A stretch of DNA of 64,000 nt, from assembly GCF_002113885.1 (NCBI RefSeq), contig NW_018407979.1:656226-720225 (forward strand), written 5' to 3'. The position numbers and the translations under genes were made by a program. Source of the stretch: Mizuhopecten yessoensis (taxonomy: Eukaryota). This document shows, one piece after another, positions 7,795 through 56,960 of the stretch (within the stretch, counting starts at the first letter, position 1; every line of letters starts with the position of its first letter). Below the pieces are notes generated by a model. It ran no database searches. It had not been told where the DNA came from and was given only the letters and a program-made list of their open reading frames with translations.

Positions 7795-8379
7795 GTTTGT
7801 CAAATTGTATTTGGAGCGATTTATTATTCTACCATCCGCCTTTACGAGTTTATATTGTAAACATGATCATAATGATAAAACAAAATGAAGAGAGTATCGT
7901 AGCGTAAACAAAAGAGGAGGGACGCTAGTCTAGTGGTAGGACGGTAGCCTAGTGGTAGGACGCCGGGTTCGTGATCGAAGGGTTAAAAGTGTAAAATCGA
8001 ACTCAAAATCGACGAAACAATAGTAAAAGATGAACAAAGTAATGATTTGCACTGACCCCTCTGGTGCGAGACGACAAAGAGTCCGTGTTCACGAAGAGGT
8101 GCTGGACATATAATATCCCGTCTGTTAATATTTTCCGAAATCGTAAATTATCAGACTCAAATGTGTATGGTGTTCAAACACGCAATGTGTTATTCACCGC
8201 ACCGGAGTGTTTAAAGTAACAGGAGTCTGCATGTCATGGTTGATAAACTGCACTAAAGTCGTTAAAGTAGCAGACTTTCATATGTCTTTTTGAGTGAAAG
8301 TATCAGAAGTTTAAAAACAAGTAAGTTCTGTGTCGTGTGTTACTCCAGAGACTTTTTATATCGGTTTACATGGCATAGT

Positions 8380-12429: not shown

Positions 12430-13770
12430 TGTAGACTTGAAAATGTCATCTACGTACATGCACTACCCATATTCAATAACAAGGTAAATGGACACAGTAA
12501 ATATTTATCATCAATACACACAGTCAATACACAGAGACAATATTCACGTCAATACCCACCGTCAACATACACAGTCAATACAGACAGTCAATATACACGG
12601 TCAACATACACAGTCAATACCCACAGTCAATATACACGGTCAACATACACAGTCAATACCCACAGTCAATACAGACAGTCAATATACACGGTCAAATATA
12701 CACAGTCAATACAGACATTCAATATACACGGTCAAATATACAGTCAATACAGGTAGTCAATACCCACAATAAATACTATTCAATTATAGCCTTTGGCTGA
12801 GGTCGATACCTGTATTTATCAACCCGAGAAAAGATATATTAACCGAGGACGCAGTTAAAGTTAAAGGCTACAATTGATTTATTATTTTACAATATCATGT
12901 TAGCAATCTGAAAAAAACTCAACGAAAAAGCTTCGGAAGTGGGACGGTGCATCGTTTGGAGACACGTCATAATTTTATTTTTAGAAACACCCAGTCCTTC
13001 AACAAAAATCACGCGCTCCAAGTCAATATCGGTTTTTATCGGTGGACACGTGTTGCACTCCTGGCCAATCTCTTGTCGGAAATAATATGAAAAAATAATA
13101 AAATGTAAATAAAATGTCAATACAAGCAGTCATGACCTAAGACAATACAAAGCAATACAGGTAGTCAATACCCGCAGTAAATCGATGAAAATAAAATGTC
13201 AATACAAGCGGTCAATAACCTAGGTCAATACAAAACAGTACAGAAAGTCAATACCCACAGTCAACACAATGTCAATACTATTCAATTATAGCCTCTTGCT
13301 GAGGTCGATACCTGGATTTATCGACCCGAGAAAAGATATATTGACCTGGGACTGCGTCCTCAGTCAATATATCTTTTATCGGGTCGATAAATCCAGGTAT
13401 TAACCGAAGTTAAAGGCTACAATTGTTTTATTATTTTACAAAACGGTAATGTAAGCAATCTGGAAAAAAAACCTTCGGAAGTGGGACGGTGCATTGTTTG
13501 GAGACACGTCATAATTCTATTTTTAGAAACACCAAGTCCTTCAACAAAAATCACGCGCTCCAAGTCAATATCGGTTTTTATCGGTGGACATGTGATGCAC
13601 TCCTGGCTAATCACTTGTCAGGTATGTAAAAATAATACAGGAAGTCAATACCATCAGTCAATACAATGTCAATACTGGAAGTCAATACCCACAGTTAACA
13701 CAATGTCAATACAGGAAGTGAATACCCACAGTCAACACAATGTCAATGCACGGTCATCACACATGGTTAA
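12430..13770. repeat. Complex satellite in an ASL intron: a 13-bp microsatellite (CAGTCAATACNCA)n, a duplicated unit of about 250 bp, and a 40-bp perfect inverted repeat
   Basis: Microsatellite tracts at 12500-12770, 13130-13270 and 13640-13760. Two copies of a roughly 530-bp higher-order unit: 12775-13100 and 13277-13620 share the blocks ctattcaattatagcc... and ...ggaagtgggacggtgcat...cgcgctccaagtcaatatcggtttttatcggtggaca. A 13300-13400 hairpin pairs ATACCTGGATTTATCGACCCGAGAAAAGATATATTGAC with its reverse complement. Confidence 0.85.
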
Positions 13771-14096
13771 TAAGCAAGGTCACCAGGTAAGGTCAATATA
13801 CTTAATAACGACCACAAGCTGCTTTAATTAATGCTATGTAAAGTGTGACTGGTGAAATTGTTCAACGTTAAGGCGAGCTTCGCTGCTCGCTGTATTATCT
13901 GTTGTTTAAATGTTTTTTCATTATTATTTTTTACGGAAAGTTCAGAACATTTTTGAAACTAGAAAATAAAACATAACGTTTTTGTATTTGTAATGGTCAA
14001 CTATAGCCAGCTATAAGAGGGAACACAGAAGCATGTTGGTCTCTGTAACGTTCGGCTAGTCAATATCTATATTACTTTGTTTTCGTTATCTTCTAG

Positions 14097-14174
14097 TTAT
14101 GCCTGGATGTTAAAAAGAGACGTAGAGCGACTTATGGAACTATCTGAGAGGGTTAACATCCTACCACTTGGAAG
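14097..14174 (+). CDS. ASL: ASL exon (SYAWMLKRDVERLMELSERVNILPLG)
   Basis: Aligns to [27 protein letters not shown]. Acceptor ttctag|, donor AG|gtatgt. Confidence 0.82.
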
Positions 14175-14308
14175 GTATGTTGTTCTGTTCGAGGATCCTT
14201 TGACAAATAGAAATAACAGTTTTGATCACTAGAGAACATATATGAATCTTCCTGTATTATGTATTACTAGCAGTATCAAACATTAAATAAGAATCTTATA
14301 TCTTCCAG

Positions 14309-14361
14309 TGGGGCACTGGCAGGGAACCCTTTCGCTGTGGACAGAGACTTTCTAGCAAAAG
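14309..14361 (+). CDS. ASL: ASL exon (SGALAGNPFAVDRDFLAK)
   Basis: Aligns to SGAIAGNPLGVDRELLRAE. Acceptor cttccag|, donor G|gtagta. Confidence 0.82.
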
Positions 14362-14798
14362 GTAGTACATTGTATCACGAGTACCACTGTGATTACAACC
14401 TAAACCAATTTTGAGAATTAACCATGGTTAATATCACCATTGTGATGTCAAATCAAACATTACAGACATGACGTCATTCCACTATGACGTCACATTGTGA
14501 AAATATTCGACATAAGTAAAACGGTAAAGTGGAAGGGATTTAGAGAATTGCTTGTATTTAACGAATATACGAAAAGGGTAATCTGATAAAACATAATTCT
14601 AAATTTGTTCCCATTTATTCTGATTCCGTTAATCTCAACGATAAAATTGGTTCTTGTTGGAGATATATCTTATTTTCTTTATGATAAGTTTATTAACAAG
14701 TTGTTCTCTTATTGGAAATAAATGTGTAACGTATTGATGAAAATACAGCAGATTTTACATGAATTTGTGAGATATAACATTGTTATTATAACAAATTG

Positions 14799-14870
14799 TT
14801 TTTTTCAGAACTTGGATTCAGTCAGATATCAGGCAATAGTTTAGATGCAGTCAGCGACCGGGATTTTGTG
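14799..14870 (+). CDS. ASL: ASL exon (ELGFSQISGNSLDAVSDRDFV)
   Basis: Aligns to [23 protein letters not shown]. Acceptor tttttcag|, donor G|gtaaga. Confidence 0.82.
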
Positions 14871-15129
14871 GGTAAGACATTATTTTGATAGGTTTGCTTT
14901 GCTATGTATTCACAATATTTCCATAGTTGGTGGTTTATAAAATAATGGCCTGTCAATCAATCGCTATATCCTGGTTAACAGGTACAGGATGTAAAACTGT
15001 TACTACATCTATAATATAAATTGATTGTATTATAGTTTGATAATTACTTTTCGCATTTTAATAGTTAACACACGTGTTTTTGTTTGATTACCTAGTTCAT
15101 TATTTTATTATAACATCGGAGTACCAGTT

Positions 15130-15710
15130 GTAGGTCAAAGTGTTGAATAATACATTAATTTATTGTCACACCAGAGAACCAGTGTTGGTTCTCTGTATTA
15201 TACAGTATATCCTTTCATTGCCACAAGGAGTAATTCATCTGGGGAAGGAAATTGTCACAGCAGAGTACCTGGTCTGTGCTTCCTTTTTGGATAAAACATT
15301 GTTTTATTCTTAAAATGGGAGATCTGCACTGGTTCTCCGTATTAGGTAGCATCTTATTTTATAGCTGTACGGAATACCTATTCTTGGCCTCTTATTGTAA
15401 CGGTGGAATCCATGTTCTGTTTCTCGTTATCATGTGGTATACCATTATTTGTCAATGAGAGTACCTGCTCTTGTCCTTTTCTGCGGATAACTATCTGTTT
15501 TATTACCCCATAGAGTACCTGTCTAGGCTCTCATTTATAGATAAATCATTGTTGTAAAGTCTTAGTAGAGCGCCTGTCCCTGTTAGCTAGTACATGTATA
15601 TCATGTTATTGCCGCGAGGAGTACCTGTCCTGGGCCTCCTGTTATTGTCACAGAGAAATACCTGTTCTGAGACCCCTTTTTGATGAATAATTGTTTTGTT
15701 CTCGCAGCGG
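15130..15710 (+). repeat. Tandem array of about 8 degenerate copies of the ASL exon-I acceptor plus exon start ((A)GAGTACCTGTYCTGGGCCTC), lying in the intron immediately upstream of the real exon
   Basis: Copies at about 15136, 15263, 15372, 15461, 15521, 15571, 15621 and 15673. The genuine acceptor and exon (gcagCGGAGTACCTGTTCTGGGCCTCT) is at 15705. Units run 50-60 bp and are interleaved with ttttggataaaacattgttttatt-like spacers. Confidence 0.8.
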
Positions 15711-15822
15711 AGTACCTGTTCTGGGCCTCTATGTTAGGGATTCACCTGAGTAGATGGGCAGAGGATCTTATTCTTTACTGCAGTAAAGAGTTCGGTTTCA
15801 TATCACTGTCGGATGCCTACAG
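15708..15822 (+). CDS. ASL: ASL exon ([38 protein letters not shown])
   Basis: Aligns to [38 protein letters not shown]. Acceptor ctcgcag|, donor AG|gtaagt. Confidence 0.88.
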
Positions 15823-16273
15823 GTAAGTACTAGTTTGTCATGACTGGCAATTTCAATCAAACTGATTTCTCGTCATGCAATAGAGAGAATATTTGTGGAC
15901 TTTGGTTCGGAAATACTCACCTTTAGTTGATATATTATTTACAAGTTTCCCTTTGAATTAAACTATATTTTCATGAGTGAAGAACTAATATATTATTCAT
16001 CTGTGTAATAGCCTGTCATCGCGTGCGAGTTTGATATGTTCTATACTCTAGGGGGGAATATTAGAAGTCCCGATCTTGTTAACATGGAAACGTAAGAAAG
16101 GATGTTCTGTCAACAGGTATAAAAATCACGATGTCGAATTTTTCGACGTCGAGTGTGCTATTTTGTTTGTTTCACTATGTATGACTTTTCTTTCAGGAGA
16201 ATATTTATATAAAACAAGTGCCATATAAGGTTGAAGTATTTATGTTGTCATGCTTAACTAAAACGACGCTTAA

Positions 16274-16513
<240 letters not shown>

Positions 16514-16755
16514 TGAAAAAAATAAATAAAAAATCATACCCTTATATCATACAGAGCAAAAATATTGCATTTAATATATGAAACTCATTAATTCTTTTAC
16601 GCAAATCAATCGTAAAGTAATTTAGCGCGTGTACAATCCAATGTTTCAATAATTGCAAAAATGCACAAGAGTTTTGCTTTTTCAATGCGTTACGTATTTG
16701 TTTAAGATATATCGGGCTTAAAAGTATAATACTTTTTTCATTTGCGTGTTTTCAG

Positions 16756-16815
16756 TTTTCAGGTTTTATGATGACACTGAAGGGTTTACCTAGTACATAT
16801 AATAAAGATTTACAG
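16756..16815 (+). CDS. ASL: ASL exon (FSGFMMTLKGLPSTYNKDLQ)
   Basis: Conserved LMTLKGLPSTYNKDLQ. First of two tandem ttttcag acceptors. Donor CAG|gtacgt. Anchored on ORF 16768..16968. Confidence 0.88.
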
Positions 16816-17180
16816 GTACGTATGGCATTATACAATACGTTAATCATCATTCCCTTTATTAACTTTGATTTGACACAATCGGTTAGCCATTATTGGCTAG
16901 TGGAGTTGCATTCGTTTCAAAAATCTCAATTTTCGTTTATATCAATATATATTATAAAACTAGGGTGAGGATATAAAACTAGGATACATTTTTACGTAAT
17001 TATTCTCTCTAACATTTTAATATACTTTGAATAAACGAAGTATCTGATATAAAGCACTTTGTTCTTCATTTTGTGCCAAACTACATCTGTCACTATTTCC
17101 CTGAACAACAGGGTGTCAGACTTACCAATATATGCTCCTTGACCCTCTTTAATAATATGTGTTTAATGCTTTTCAAACAG

Positions 17181-17465: not shown

Positions 17466-17497
<32 letters not shown>
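17466..17497 (+). repeat. Poly(G) homopolymer, about 32 nt, in an ASL intron
   Basis: Directly visible. It produces the GGGGGGGGGG run in ORF 17360..17557. Confidence 0.95.
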
Positions 17498-17848: not shown

Positions 17849-17929
17849 ATCCACCCGGAGAAGATGAGGGGTGCGCTCAGTCCAGATATGCTAGCTACTG
17901 ACATTGCATATTACCTGGTTCGGAAGGGG
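17849..17929 (+). CDS. ASL: ASL exon ([27 protein letters not shown])
   Basis: Aligns to [27 protein letters not shown]. Acceptor attttcag|, donor GGG|gtatgt. Confidence 0.88.
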
Positions 17930-18039
17930 GTATGTTTATAAATTGTATTTTAATAAGACAGAATTCGAACATATGTTTTCTGCTTGTAAAAAAAAATAAA
18001 AAAGCTTCAACCTTCAAATTTCATAAATGCATGTGTTTC

Positions 18040-18110
18040 GTAATGACTAAAGCTACTGACATTGCATATTACCTTGCTCTGAAGGGAGTAAGCTCATAAA
18101 TTATAGTTAA
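18040..18110 (+). repeat. Partial duplicate of the 3' end of ASL exon M plus its donor region, about 190 bp downstream in the intron
   Basis: gctactgacattgcatattaccttgctctgaagggagtaagctcataaatt versus the exon gctactgacattgcatattacctggttcggaagggggtatgtttataaatt. Confidence 0.7.
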
Positions 18111-18220
18111 ATAAGACATAAACTGTTATGAGAACGAACTACATTCCAGCACTGTATTGTACCCGCTAATCATCTTGTTCTTCACAGTTCAGTAAAACAT
18201 GTAAAACACTTTGTGCTACT

Positions 18221-18413: not shown

Positions 18414-18670
18414 CAGTATCCATTAGTTAAGGGACTTGTACTGTATAACAATCTTTCGTGAGGGGCCTGTTCTTGAGTTGTCCAGTAAATATTTCGTGAG
18501 GATCGTTTTCGTAGAGTTGTCCAATATATGTTATATACGCTGACATATTAATACTCTTTGTGCTATCCCTTAATTAAGGAATCTGTATATTGCTATTTGG
18601 TAAGACTCTTTACTTTATATGAATTAATGTCTACTCTTCATTATAGCTTTTACTTATGTTCATTCCCTAG

Positions 18671-52489: not shown

Positions 52490-55400
52490 CCACTAACATA
52501 ATTTCACCACAAAAGCATTCCAAACAATCTTACACACTTATATATTCAACACAATCCTACATAATGTAACATCACTCACAATCCTACATAATGTAACATT
52601 ACACACAATCATTCACAAGGTAACATCACTCACAGTCCTACATAACGCAACATTTCACACAATCCTACACAAGGTAACATCACTCACAATCCTACACATG
52701 GTAACATCACTCACAATCCTACACAAGGTAACATCACTCACAATCCTACACAAGGTAACATTACACACAATCATACATAATGTAACATTACACACAATCC
52801 TACATAATGCAACATTACAAACAATCTTACATAATGAAACATTACACACAATCCTACATAATGCAACATTACAAACAATCTTACATAATGAAACATTACA
52901 CACAATCCTACATAATGCAACATTACAAACAATCTTACATAATGAAACATTACACACAATCCTACATAATGCAACATTACACACAGTCCTACACAATGTA
53001 ACATTACACACAATCCTACATAATGCAACATTACAAACAATCTTACACAATGTAACATTACACAAAATCCTACATAATGCAACATTACACACAATCCTAC
53101 ACAAGGTAACATCCGTCATAATCCTACATAATGTAACATCACTCACAATCCTACACAAGGTAACATCACTCACAATCCTACACAAGGTAACATCACTCAC
53201 AATCCTACACATGGTAACATCACTCACAATCCTACACAAGGTAACATTACACACAATCCTACACAAGGTAACATCCGTCATAATCCTACATAATGTAACA
53301 TCACTCACAATCCTACATAATGTAACATTACACACAATCATTCACAAGGTAACATCACTCACAGTCCTACATAACGCAACATTACACACAATCCTACACA
53401 ATGTAACATTACACACAGTCCTACACAATGTAACATTACACACAGTCCTACACAATGTAACATTACACACAATCGTACATAATGTAACATTACACACAAT
53501 CCTACATAATGCAACATTACAAACAATCTTACATAATGAAACATTACACACAATCCTACATAATGCAACATTACAAACAATCTTACACAATGTAACATTA
53601 CACAAAATCCTACATAATGCAACATTACACACAATCCTACACAATGCAACATTACACTCAATCCTATATAATGCAACATTACACACAGTCCTACACAATG
53701 TAACATTACACACAGTCCTACACAATGTAACATTACACACAATCGTACATAATGTAACATTACACACAATCCTACACAATGTAACATTACACACAATCCT
53801 ACACAATGCAACATTACACTCAATCCTATATAATGCAACATTACACACAGTCCTACACAATGTAACATTACACACAATCCTACACAATGTAACATTACAC
53901 ACAATCCTACATAATGCAACTTTACACACAATCCTACATAATGTAACATTACACACAATCCTACACAAGGTAACATCCGTCATAATCCTACATAATGTAA
54001 CATCACTCACAATCCTACACAAGGTAACATTACACACAATCTTACACAAGGTAACATCACTCACAATCCTACATAATGTAACATCAAACACAATCCTACA
54101 CAAGGTAACATCACTCACAATCCTACATAATGTAACATTACACACAATCCTGCACAAGGTAACATCACTCACAATCCTACACAAGGTAACATTACCCACA
54201 ATCATACACAAGGTAACATCACTCACAATCCTACACAAGGTAACATCACTCACAATCCTACACAAGGTAACATCACTCACAATCCTACACAATGTAACAT
54301 TACTCACAATCCTACATAATGTAACATTACACACAATCCTACACACGGTAACATTACGCACAATCATACATAATGTAACATTACACACAATCCTACACAA
54401 GGTAACATCACTCACAATCCTACACAAGGTAACATCACTCACAATCCTACACAAGGTAACATCACTCACAATCCTACACAATGTAACATTACTCACAATC
54501 CTACATAATGTAACATTACACACAATCCTACACACGGTAACATTACGCACAATCATACATAATGTAACATTACACACAATCCTACACAAGGTAACATCAC
54601 TCACAATCCTACACAAGGTAACATCACTCACAATCCTACACAAGGTAACATCACTCACAATCCTACACAATGTAACATTACTCACAATCCTACATAATGT
54701 AACATTACACACAATCCTACACACGGTAACATTACGCACAATCATACATAATGTAACATTACACACAATCCTACACAAGGTAACATCACTGACAATCCTA
54801 TACAAGGTAACATTACACACAATCCAACACAAGGTAACATCACTCACAATCCTACACAAGGTAACATCACTGACAATCCTATACAAGGTAACATTACACA
54901 CAATCCTACACAAGGTAACATCGCTCACAATCCTACATAATGTAACATTACACACAATCCAACACAAGGTAACATCACTCACAATCCTACATAATGTAAC
55001 ATTACACACAATCATTCACAAGGTAACATCACTCACAGTCCTACATAACGCAACATTTCACACAATCCTACACAAGGTAACATCACTCACAATCCTACAC
55101 ATGGTAACATCACTCACAATCCTACACAAGGTAACATCACTCACAATCCTACAAATGTAACGTCACTCACAATCCTACACAAGGTAACATGACGCACAAT
55201 CATACATAATGTAACATTACACACAATCCTACACAAGGTAACATCACTCACGATCCTACATCATGTAACATTACACACAATCCTACACAAGGTAACATCA
55301 CTCACAATCCTACCCAAGGTAACATCACTCACAATCCTCCACAAGGTAACATCACTCACAACCTACATTATGTAACATCACTCACAATCCTACATAATGC

Positions 55401-56960
55401 AACATAACACACAATCCTACACAAGGTAACATCACTCACAATCCTGCACAAGGTAACATCACTCACAATCCTACATCATGTAACATTACACACAATCCTA
55501 CACAATGTAACATCACTCACAATCCTACACAAGGTAACATGACGCACAATCATACATAATGTAACATTACACACAATCCTACACAAGGTAACATCACTCA
55601 CAATCCTCCACAAGGTAACATCACTCACAACCTACATTATGTAACATCACTCAAAATCCTACATAATGCAACATTACACACAATCTTACATAATGTAACA
55701 TTACACACAATCCTACACAAGGTAACATGACGCCCAATCATACATAATGTAACATTACACACAATCCTACATAATGCAACATTACACACAATCCTACATA
55801 ATGCAACATTACAAACAAACTTACATAATGCAACATTACACACAATCCTACACAATGTAACATTACACACAATCATACATAATGTAACATTACACACAGT
55901 CCTACACAATGTAACATTACACACAATCCTACATAATGCAACATTACAAACAAACTTACATAATGCAACATTACACACAATCCTACACAATGTAACATTA
56001 CACACAATCCTACATAATGCAACATTACAAACAAACTTACATAATGCAACATTACACACAATCCTACACAAGGTAACATCACTCACAATCCTCCACAAGG
56101 TAACATCACTCACAGTCCTACATAATGTAACATCAAGCACAATCCTACATAATGTAACACTACACACAGTCCTACATAATGTAACATTACACACAATCCT
56201 ACACAATGTAACATTACACACAGTCCTACATAATTTAACATTACACACAATCCTACACAATGTAACATTACACACAATCCTACATAATGTAACATTACAC
56301 ACAATCCTACACAAGGTAACATCACTCACAATCCTACACAAGGTAACATTACCCACAATCATACACAAGGTAACATCACTCACAATCCTACACAAGGTAA
56401 CATTACCCACAATCATACACAAGGTAACATCACTCACAATCCTACACAAGGTAACATCACTCACAATCCTACACAAGGTAACATGACGCACAAGCATACA
56501 TAATGTAACATTACACACAATCCTACATAATGCAACATTACACACAATCCTATATAATGCGACATTACACACAATCCTATATAATGCGACATTACACACA
56601 ATCTTACATAATGCAACATTACACATAATCCTACATAATGTAACATTACACACAATACTACATATTACAACATTACACACAATTCTACATAATGCAACGT
56701 TACACACAATCCTACATAACGCAACATTACACACAATCTTACATAATGTAATTTTACACACAAATTCACCAGAACTTGTAAACTTACATAATTTAACACG
56801 ACGCGCAATCTTACATAATTGAACATTACCCACAATCTTACATAATTCAATATTACATAATCTTACATAATTTAGCATAACACTTTATCTCACATAGTTC
56901 ATGTTTTACGTAATTTTCAATTAATAATATTACTGACAATCTCACATAATTCAGTATTAC
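52490..56960. repeat. 27-bp minisatellite (consensus TCACAATCCTACACAAGGTAACATCAC), about 165 copies over about 4.45 kb, with higher-order repeats
   Basis: Strict 27-nt periodicity. It is a multiple of 3, so it generates the 820-aa, 557-aa and 413-aa artefact ORFs on both strands. Blocks of 189 bp are repeated 3 times (54181-54720), and blocks of 54 bp 3 times near 52800-52960. Confidence 0.95.

Follow-up and report, generated by a model that had tools for sequence, protein, structure and literature searches.

A probable mirage-type minisatellite derived from the intron 9/exon 10 boundary of the argininosuccinate lyase gene in scallops

Directly upstream of exon 10 of the argininosuccinate lyase (ASL) gene of the Yesso scallop, Mizuhopecten yessoensis, the intron contains a row of sequences that resemble the acceptor and the beginning of that very exon. 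How did such a row arise, and does it serve splicing or merely accompany it? The locus lies within a stretch of 64,000 nucleotides (nt) of contig NW_018407979.1 (positions 656,226 to 720,225), in the following called the window, to which all positions refer unless stated otherwise. A sequence-only reading of the window had noted about eight diverged decoy copies of the boundary, beginning at 15130. Our analysis favours, with a probability of about 75%, the view that the row is a degenerate minisatellite of the "mirage" type, which was born from a duplicated intron 9/exon 10 boundary of scallop ASL.

The gene structure was established in two steps. A human ASL sequence served as tblastn bait, solely to locate the exons, and detected an exon series on the plus strand at about 7.7-19.3 kb. 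The exons were then confirmed by exact mapping of a database protein. This annotated protein (P0001) was found in a protein search to be 99% identical to a rough splice of the exons in the window, and its exact spliced mapping yielded 16 coding exons on the plus strand, with an acceptor at 15707/15708. According to this mapping, and to tblastn, coding exon 9 (14809-14871) ends with …LGFSQISGNSLDAVSDRDFV in phase 1. It is followed by intron 9 (14872-15707, 836 nt), which closes with the real polypyrimidine tract and acceptor, ttgttttgttctcgcAG (15692-15707), and by coding exon 10 (15708-15822). The public annotation contains a single ASL isoform, and the annotated protein uses the real exon 10 site.

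An array of boundary copies is indeed present at the position noted earlier, and it is not random. The 20-mer of the exon start, GAGTACCTGTTCTGGGCCTC, had four matches with up to 3 mismatches in the window, compared with none in 100 shuffles. For the 22-mer CGGAGTACCTGTTCTGGGCCTC, all 10 matches with up to 7 mismatches in both strands of the window (128 kb in total) were located on the plus strand at 15117-15708, and with up to 9 mismatches 12 matches were found within the same interval. A position weight matrix (PWM) of the boundary was trained only on the 11 clear intronic copies, with the true boundary left out, and gave the true boundary a score of 36.6 bits. At a threshold of 12 bits, the only 12 forward-strand matches of this matrix in the window made up the array, and both minus-strand matches (12.0 and 13.3 bits) were situated inside it. 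Likewise, a hidden Markov model (HMM) of the intronic copies recovered the true M. yessoensis boundary (E=1e-5), and both the copy-trained matrix and the copy-trained HMM also picked out the true boundary in two further scallops, Pecten maximus and Ylistrum balloti. The self-comparison that had been proposed as a check was performed in numerical form, and lag peaks at 54/55, 144, 196-199, and 247-251 nt were far above those of shuffles; periodicity, the lack of which would have refuted the observation, is therefore present. As a control, the recurrence of the next exon's start was examined in 45 ASL introns of the three scallop species. It recurred repeatedly in only one of them, namely this intron, with nine copies, and the other 44 contained nothing comparable. 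Tandem Repeats Finder reported nothing in the region 14000-17000 and nothing in the P. maximus intron. The array escapes this program owing to its uneven spacing and to a likeness between copies of only about 50-90%, and therefore custom mismatch, PWM, HMM, and lag analyses were applied in its place.

Together, the mismatch searches, the PWM, the lag analysis, and alignments delimit an array of 12 diverged tandem copies at 15099-15707, with a base unit of about 54 nt. The copies described in the sequence-only reading thus exist, but their number was underestimated and the array begins about 30 nt earlier than had been thought. All 12 intronic copies and the real one are arranged head-to-tail on the plus strand with a spacing of 34-55 nt. 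A unit spans approximately positions -16 to +38 around the acceptor and consists of intronic context plus exonic sequence. The alignment of the units begins at about -16 (ttattgtcacag-type context) and ends at +22, or in the longer ones at about +38; in these, the likeness to the exon continues to about +30 to +38 (…CTCTGTATTA… vs …CTCTATGTTA…). The proposed composition of the unit, acceptor plus exon start, was therefore right, but the proposed exonic length of 20 nt was too short for some units. The alignment consensus is TTTTATTGTCACAG-GGAGTACCTGTTCTGGGCCTC, the mean column identity across the units is 58%, and the real boundary fits the consensus.

The distances between successive copies reveal a higher-order structure. 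They are 55, 54, and 35 nt in the first block, 55, 54, and 34 nt in the second, then 53, 54, about 55, about 51, and 37 nt, and finally 54 nt between the last intronic copy, U12, and the real boundary. Some units are shortened to 34-37 nt, including every third one in the first two blocks, and three units form a block of 143-144 nt. The real boundary follows in register, and the first 22-38 nt of exon 10 represent the 13th, terminal unit of the array. The earlier proposal that the real exon is the last member of a minisatellite was borne out by this register, and by its high score with a matrix from which it had been left out.

The individual units, all on the plus strand, differ considerably in their likeness to the exon, with 2 (U11), 3 (U6), and 4 (U4) core mismatches in 22 positions at one extreme and 9 and about 11 at the other. 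The first block consists of U1 (15101-15155, core at 15117, 6/22 mismatches), which has no AG at the homologous position, U2 (15156-15209, core at 15172, 7/22), and the short unit U3 (15210-15244, core at 15226, 9/22). It is followed by U4 (15245-15299, core at 15261, 4/22), with the context attgtcacag and a triple AG, U5 (15300-15353, core at 15316, 9/22), and the short unit U6 (15354-15387, core at 15370, 3/22), which contains CGGAATACCTATTCTTGGCCTC. Next are U7 (15388-15440, core at 15404, 7/22), which has no AG nearby, U8 (15441-15494, core at 15457, 6/22), and U9 (15495-15549, core at 15511, 7/22), with the acceptor-like sequence ccccatag. The weakest copy is U10 (15550-15600, core at about 15566), with about 11/22 mismatches by hand count, which was recognised by its register and by GAGCGCCTGTCC. 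The short unit U11 (15601-15637, core at 15617) has only 2/22 mismatches and 43.1 bits and looks the youngest, and U12 (15638-15691, core at 15654, 6/22) completes the series. The core of U2 (15172-15195) forms a perfect 10-bp inverted repeat, CAGAGAACCA gtgt TGGTTCTCTG, of which U5 has a weaker version; it is mere speculation that hairpin-prone units might favour slippage. A structured RNA was also considered and dropped: Rfam gave no match at E <=1 for 14500-16300, and shuffles fold almost as well as the array RNA (z = -1.7). The motif TGTTCT in the core resembles a steroid-receptor half-site, but the spacing does not fit.

The exonic part of the unit encodes the ancient LFWAS motif, and therefore the boundary is the source of the copies and not their product. 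To estimate their age, the orthologous intron was compared in P. maximus (L001) and Y. balloti (L002), with proteins mapped exactly onto both loci, and in an oyster genomic contig (L003). This comparison, which had also been suggested in advance, revealed a homologous array in P. maximus, one copy in Y. balloti, 80 nt upstream of the real site, and no array in the 425 nt intron of the oyster contig. In P. maximus, intron 9 comprises 1503 nt, and its last approximately 380 nt form an array with a period of 77-87 nt, in which the true boundary is again the last unit. In front of the unit cores, e.g. CGAAGTACCTG and CTGAGTATCTG, stands AATGTCAC. Of the five matches to RAGTAYMTG in the 15.6 kb P. 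maximus locus, four fall into the array, and the HMM of the M. yessoensis copies ranked four P. maximus units right after the true boundaries. An isolated relic copy is present at 8052-8076 of the same locus.

The three scallop genera are close to neutral saturation. The synonymous divergence (dS), calculated from the ASL coding sequence, is 1.0-1.2, the p-distance at four-fold sites is 0.44-0.50, and the introns are otherwise almost wholly unalignable. The unique 5' part of the M. yessoensis intron (14872-15098), which has no matches to the boundary queries or the PWM, is weakly collinear with the sequence 5' of the Ylistrum copy, with 14 of 500 shuffles equal or better. The copies, in turn, have characters in common across the genera that are absent from the exons of P. 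maximus and Y. balloti, namely GTAY for ATTC and a TGTCAC context. These common characters suggest that the array arose once, before the genera separated, and was then turned over independently. Thus, by sequence comparison, the array most likely predates the split of Mizuhopecten, Pecten, and Ylistrum, while independent origins at the same boundary in separate genera are possible. The youngest M. yessoensis copies, with 2-4 mismatches, must either be younger than the split or have been renewed from the exon. Copy number (12, about five blocks, and one), period (54 vs 77 nt), and unit sequence all differ between the species. Copies with 2 to about 11 mismatches in 22 positions, set against a near-saturated dS, fit continuing turnover and not a fixed design.

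The original description of repeats of this kind is said to be that of Canestro et al. in 2002. In amphioxus, "mirage" minisatellites have been found in Adh3, TnC, the globins BflGb6 and BflGb9, and PGBD5, with tandem units that span an intron-exon boundary; in BflGb6 the unit consists of the 3' end of an intron together with the 5' portion of the next exon (PMC3087553, PMC3902484). In many of the copies AG/GT signals are retained, yet normal mRNA is produced; the units, which are 81-100% identical and differ polymorphically from haplotype to haplotype, are young (PMC3087553, PMC3902484). The scallop array is likewise tandem and boundary-spanning, has the authentic boundary at its end, is located on the same side as in BflGb6, and keeps the AG signal in many, albeit not all, copies, as do the amphioxus repeats. 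In structure it appears to be a mirage, that is, an example of a kind already described. It differs in that its copies are only 50-90% alike, and thus fall short of the identity of the amphioxus units, in its three-unit higher-order structure, in the diverged form common to several genera, and in its occurrence in a mollusc. We treat the low identity of the units as a matter of age and not of kind, i.e. the scallop array as old and degenerate. The differences in copy number and period between species are consistent with turnover; M. yessoensis itself is known from one sequence.

A mirror image exists in the human F7 gene, in which a 37-bp variable number tandem repeat occupies intron 7 (IVS7) and its first element spans the exon 7/intron 7 boundary (PMC1557585). 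The pseudo-sites are normally silent, and experiments showed that the authentic site is chosen by 5'-to-3' scanning (PMC1557585). Both systems have a terminal element that spans the exon-intron boundary and a row of pseudo-sites inside the intron. In F7, however, the repeat belongs to the donor side and begins with the real unit, and the pseudo-sites are downstream and identical in sequence, whereas the scallop array is on the acceptor side, its last unit is real, and its pseudo-sites are upstream, diverged, and known here from sequence alone. The remark that such an arrangement is not commonly described thus did not hold, given the amphioxus mirages (PMC3087553, PMC3902484) and their human mirror image (PMC1557585). 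In the searchable literature, which is incomplete, this kind of repeat was found only in amphioxus and, mirrored, in one human gene, with no report from a mollusc. A further relative is the model of Rogers, cited in PMC3087553, in which segments containing AG|GT are duplicated in tandem and an intron is thereby gained or a boundary shifted; a potato RdRp gene is presented as such a case (PMC4974935). The scallop array shares with this model a local tandem duplication that makes extra splice signals beside a coding boundary, and copies that can change roles. However, scallop ASL gained no intron, and the most that may have occurred is a swap of acceptor copies.

How might such an array have formed? 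A segment of about 54 nt, from approximately -16 to +38 around the acceptor, would have been duplicated by unequal crossing-over or replication slippage, and the upstream copies would thereby have become intronic. The array could then have grown, partly in three-unit blocks of 143-144 nt, after which the copies decayed and the array turned over separately in each scallop lineage. Only the last copy runs on into an intact exon, and it is this copy that is used in the annotated protein. The array would be tolerated because no other copy leads into an intact exon. Some copies may be silent because they have no proper AG or pyrimidine tract, others may lose to the site that is nearest to the branch point and the downstream donor, and still others would yield transcripts with premature stop codons, which are presumably degraded. 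The final 34 nt before the real acceptor contain no AG. General knowledge of splicing suggests that the real site would be favoured by a nearby branch point, the pyrimidine tract of the last spacer, this AG-free stretch, and the downstream donor. Most likely, the array is a tolerated by-product of local repeat instability and not a device. A second boundary duplication in ASL and the many tandem repeats of the window provide a repeat-prone background.

Copies and exon may also have influenced each other after the array had formed. The third residue of exon 10 (EFLFW) is Phe in 118 of the 120 best-matching ASL proteins, all of which are from animals. The exceptions are Capitella, with Ile, and M. 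yessoensis, the only one with Tyr. The corresponding codons are GAA TTC in P. maximus, Y. balloti, and a fourth scallop transcript (P0004), and GAG TTC in oysters, while the intronic copies of all three scallops have TAC or TAT at the Phe/Tyr codon. The context of the acceptor shows a similar pattern. The real acceptors of Pecten and Ylistrum both end with …attattacag and are identical at 12 of 14 positions. The real M. yessoensis context, ttttgttctcgcag, is unlike these real sites, but it resembles the Ylistrum copy, ttttgttctcgtag, and is otherwise found only as this Ylistrum decoy. By hand count, the Ylistrum copy and the real M. yessoensis boundary are identical at 13/14 intronic and 14/18 exonic positions, and their alignment score is 41, compared with a shuffle maximum of 28. 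For orthologous real acceptors, 45 comparisons yielded 5-12 identical positions of 14, with means of 8-8.7 and none above 12. A rough binomial estimate of the probability of such a likeness is 0.003-0.03, depending on the assumed divergence per lineage.

It is conceivable, although we regard it as rather doubtful, that copies and true boundary exchanged sequence or roles during scallop evolution. A crossover or conversion in the Mizuhopecten line may have given exon 10 the context ttttgttctcgcag and the TAC codon of a copy, and thereby changed Phe to Tyr; the founder copy may have mutated first and the exchange with the exon may have followed later. Alternatively, the copies may record an ancestral scallop exon with Tyr, and Phe may have been restored in the Pecten/Ylistrum clade. 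The two scenarios are equally parsimonious and involve the same number of steps. The copy-consensus context ttttattgtcacag was tried as a polariser, but it is identical to either real context at 11/14 positions (hand count) and does not discriminate. The idea that two derived exon changes match the copies was also weakened, as oysters have GAG too, which leaves the T-to-A change (Phe to Tyr) as the only one peculiar to M. yessoensis. Several searches were made for an independent M. yessoensis sequence. Exact look-ups of the open reading frame spanning exon 10 gave no match, a 120-aa search found no fragment above 77% identity, an exon-sized search retrieved just one oyster contig and one metagenome fragment, and a metagenome scan with the exon pattern gave no match. 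Therefore, the Tyr codon and the splicing pattern rest on one assembly and its annotation.

Next, the quality of the copies as splice acceptors was quantified. A crude acceptor matrix, small and local, was built from 42 real ASL acceptors of the three scallops, with intron 9 left out. Real ASL acceptors scored 8.7 on average (median 8.4), and the 95th percentile of other intronic AGs was 6.0. The real acceptor at 15708, which leads to normal ASL, scored 11.2. An AG is present within a few bases of the homologous position in 10 of the 12 intronic copies, the exceptions being U1 and U7, and about four copies reached the range of real acceptors. These are U2 (exon start at 15175, score 9.0), U9 (15514, score 6.8), U10 (15569, score 8.5), and U12 (cacag followed by AG, 15654, score 8.9). 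Their use would lead to a stop at codon 19, codon 14, codon 40, and, for U12, which is in frame, codon 5, respectively. A fifth high-scoring AG, at 15065 outside of the array, would also lead to an early stop, such that all five high-scoring intronic AGs tested in M. yessoensis (four of them in array copies) result in a stop within 5-40 codons. It is fair to regard several copies as plausible cryptic acceptors by their scores, but the earlier statement that each copy is one was too strong, in view of the two copies without AG. The best donor-like site in the array scored 6.0, compared with a median of 9.0 for real donors, and none was within the real range. The array thus offers no decoy exons. 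In P. maximus, the last copy (L001, 8845-8922) scores 11.4, compared with 10.9 for the real acceptor, is located 78 nt upstream of it, and is in frame and free of stop codons, and its use would insert 26 residues instead of truncating the protein.

Several observations weigh against a mere by-product. Some M. yessoensis copies equal typical real acceptors (8.5-9.0, compared with the median of 8.4), and copies of P. maximus and Y. balloti score 14.0, 11.4, and 11.0, which is above the true sites with 10.9 and 9.9. Therefore, weakness alone cannot explain the silence of the copies, and we infer their non-use from the single annotated isoform only. In addition, constraint could be the reason why two genera have retained an array at one boundary, and the 13/14 likeness of the Ylistrum copy appears to exceed what is expected for a neutral relic at a dS of about 1.2.

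These observations lead to the rival that has survived best, namely that the copies are functional decoy acceptors, at which U2AF/U2 would be engaged upstream of the real site, with ASL output tuned by unproductive splicing or by retention of intron 9. Transcripts with stop codons would be removed by nonsense-mediated decay, and selection would keep the array. In mammals, decoy splice sites and decoy exons promote intron retention and are defined by the binding of splicing factors and by regulated retention. The scallop copies resemble them as non-productive, splice-site-like sequences within an intron near the real site. This view would be in accordance with the acceptor-like scores, which in P. 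maximus and Y. balloti partly surpass that of the true site, with the premature stops at all five tested AGs, with the unusually conserved Y. balloti copy, and with the fact that two genera have an array and a third has one copy at this same boundary although neutral divergence is saturated. In a stronger version of the exchange between copies and boundary considered above, the unusually conserved copies may have been kept as decoy acceptors that regulate ASL. However, copy number, period, and unit sequence vary between the species, the homologous position lacks an AG in two M. yessoensis copies, and the paired acceptor and donor signals of decoy exons are absent, as the array has no donor-like partners. 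Furthermore, the public annotation contains a single isoform, and amphioxus mirages leave splicing undisturbed (PMC3087553, PMC3902484). A regulatory decoy function is thus possible but unsupported, and we consider it improbable.

Far less likely is an origin from an intronic satellite that has no relation to the boundary, or from repeats inside a mobile element, with a likeness to the exon that is coincidental or secondary. Bivalve genomes contain many satellites associated with such elements, and the window itself is rich in tandem repeats, among them the array of 13-nt units in intron 6 and the 157 copies of a 27-nt satellite. However, the unit occurs nowhere else on either strand of the 64 kb, and the copies match up to 20 of 22 nt of the LFWAS-coding sequence, together with the acceptor context. 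In addition, copy-trained models recognise the true boundary of three species, and in two of these the boundary is the last unit, in register.

A chance likeness of a pyrimidine-rich intron, or an artefact of the assembly, can hardly account for the array, even though Tandem Repeats Finder reports nothing and the M. yessoensis array stems from a single assembly. The chance reading is refuted by the absence of matches in shuffles, the confinement of all 10 matches to 600 nt of 128 kb, and the periodicity far above shuffles. An artefact is contradicted by the homologous array at the same place in the independent assembly of another genus, and units that are only 50-90% alike are too diverged for a collapse or expansion. 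Finally, remnants of tandemly duplicated, mutually exclusive copies of exon 10 would also be in tandem on the same strand and begin with acceptor-like context, but the copies extend over no more than about 38 of the 115 exon nt, a third of the exon, lack the rest of the exon and the donor site in every case, and in the short units comprise merely 34-37 nt. This highly implausible origin was therefore rejected.

The boundary of exon 10 is not the only one in ASL that has been copied. The 3' end of exon 14 (37 nt) and the start of intron 14 (34 nt), at 17893-17963 on the plus strand, recur 158 nt downstream at 18051-18121 with 85% identity over 71 nt, including the donor (…gtaagc). The region 17893-18121 represents a single-copy, donor-side "mirage". 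A 22-mer check revealed no counterpart in intron 14 of P. maximus or Y. balloti. Intron 14 also contains a 38-nt repeat (18450-18523, 1.9 copies) with GAGGGGCCTGTTCT, which is loosely similar to the array core GGAGTACCTGTTCT; this likeness is probably due to chance.

Several other repeats were found in the window. ASL intron 6 contains, at 12511-12776, 13103-13261, and 13634-13747, a 13-nt minisatellite, TCAATACACACAG, with about 20 copies, and related 37- and 83-nt repeats; all of them are rich in CACAG and none are boundary copies. Intron 13 contains an unbroken run of 32 G (17466-17497). Outside of ASL, five tandem tRNA-Ser genes (four TGA and one CGA) are located on the minus strand at 47519-48782 with a spacing of about 294 nt. 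A 27-nt satellite, CATTACACACAATCCTACACAATGTAA, extends over 52516-56763 with about 157 copies of 87% identity and is responsible for a GC skew of about -0.6 over 52-57 kb.

What does the scallop array imply? A dozen near-copies directly upstream of a used acceptor represent a natural test bed for the choice of 3' splice sites, and an acceptor-side counterpart of the F7 system, with which directional selection of 5' sites was demonstrated. In practice, boundary arrays are a trap that can mislead gene predictors and the interpretation of variants at exon edges. Boundary-spanning mirage repeats reach beyond amphioxus, and they can persist, while being turned over, across genera with otherwise unalignable introns. 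The second case in ASL suggests that mirages outside amphioxus may not be rare. Lastly, the Tyr/Phe pattern suggests that such arrays can either record past states of an exon or feed changes into the coding sequence.

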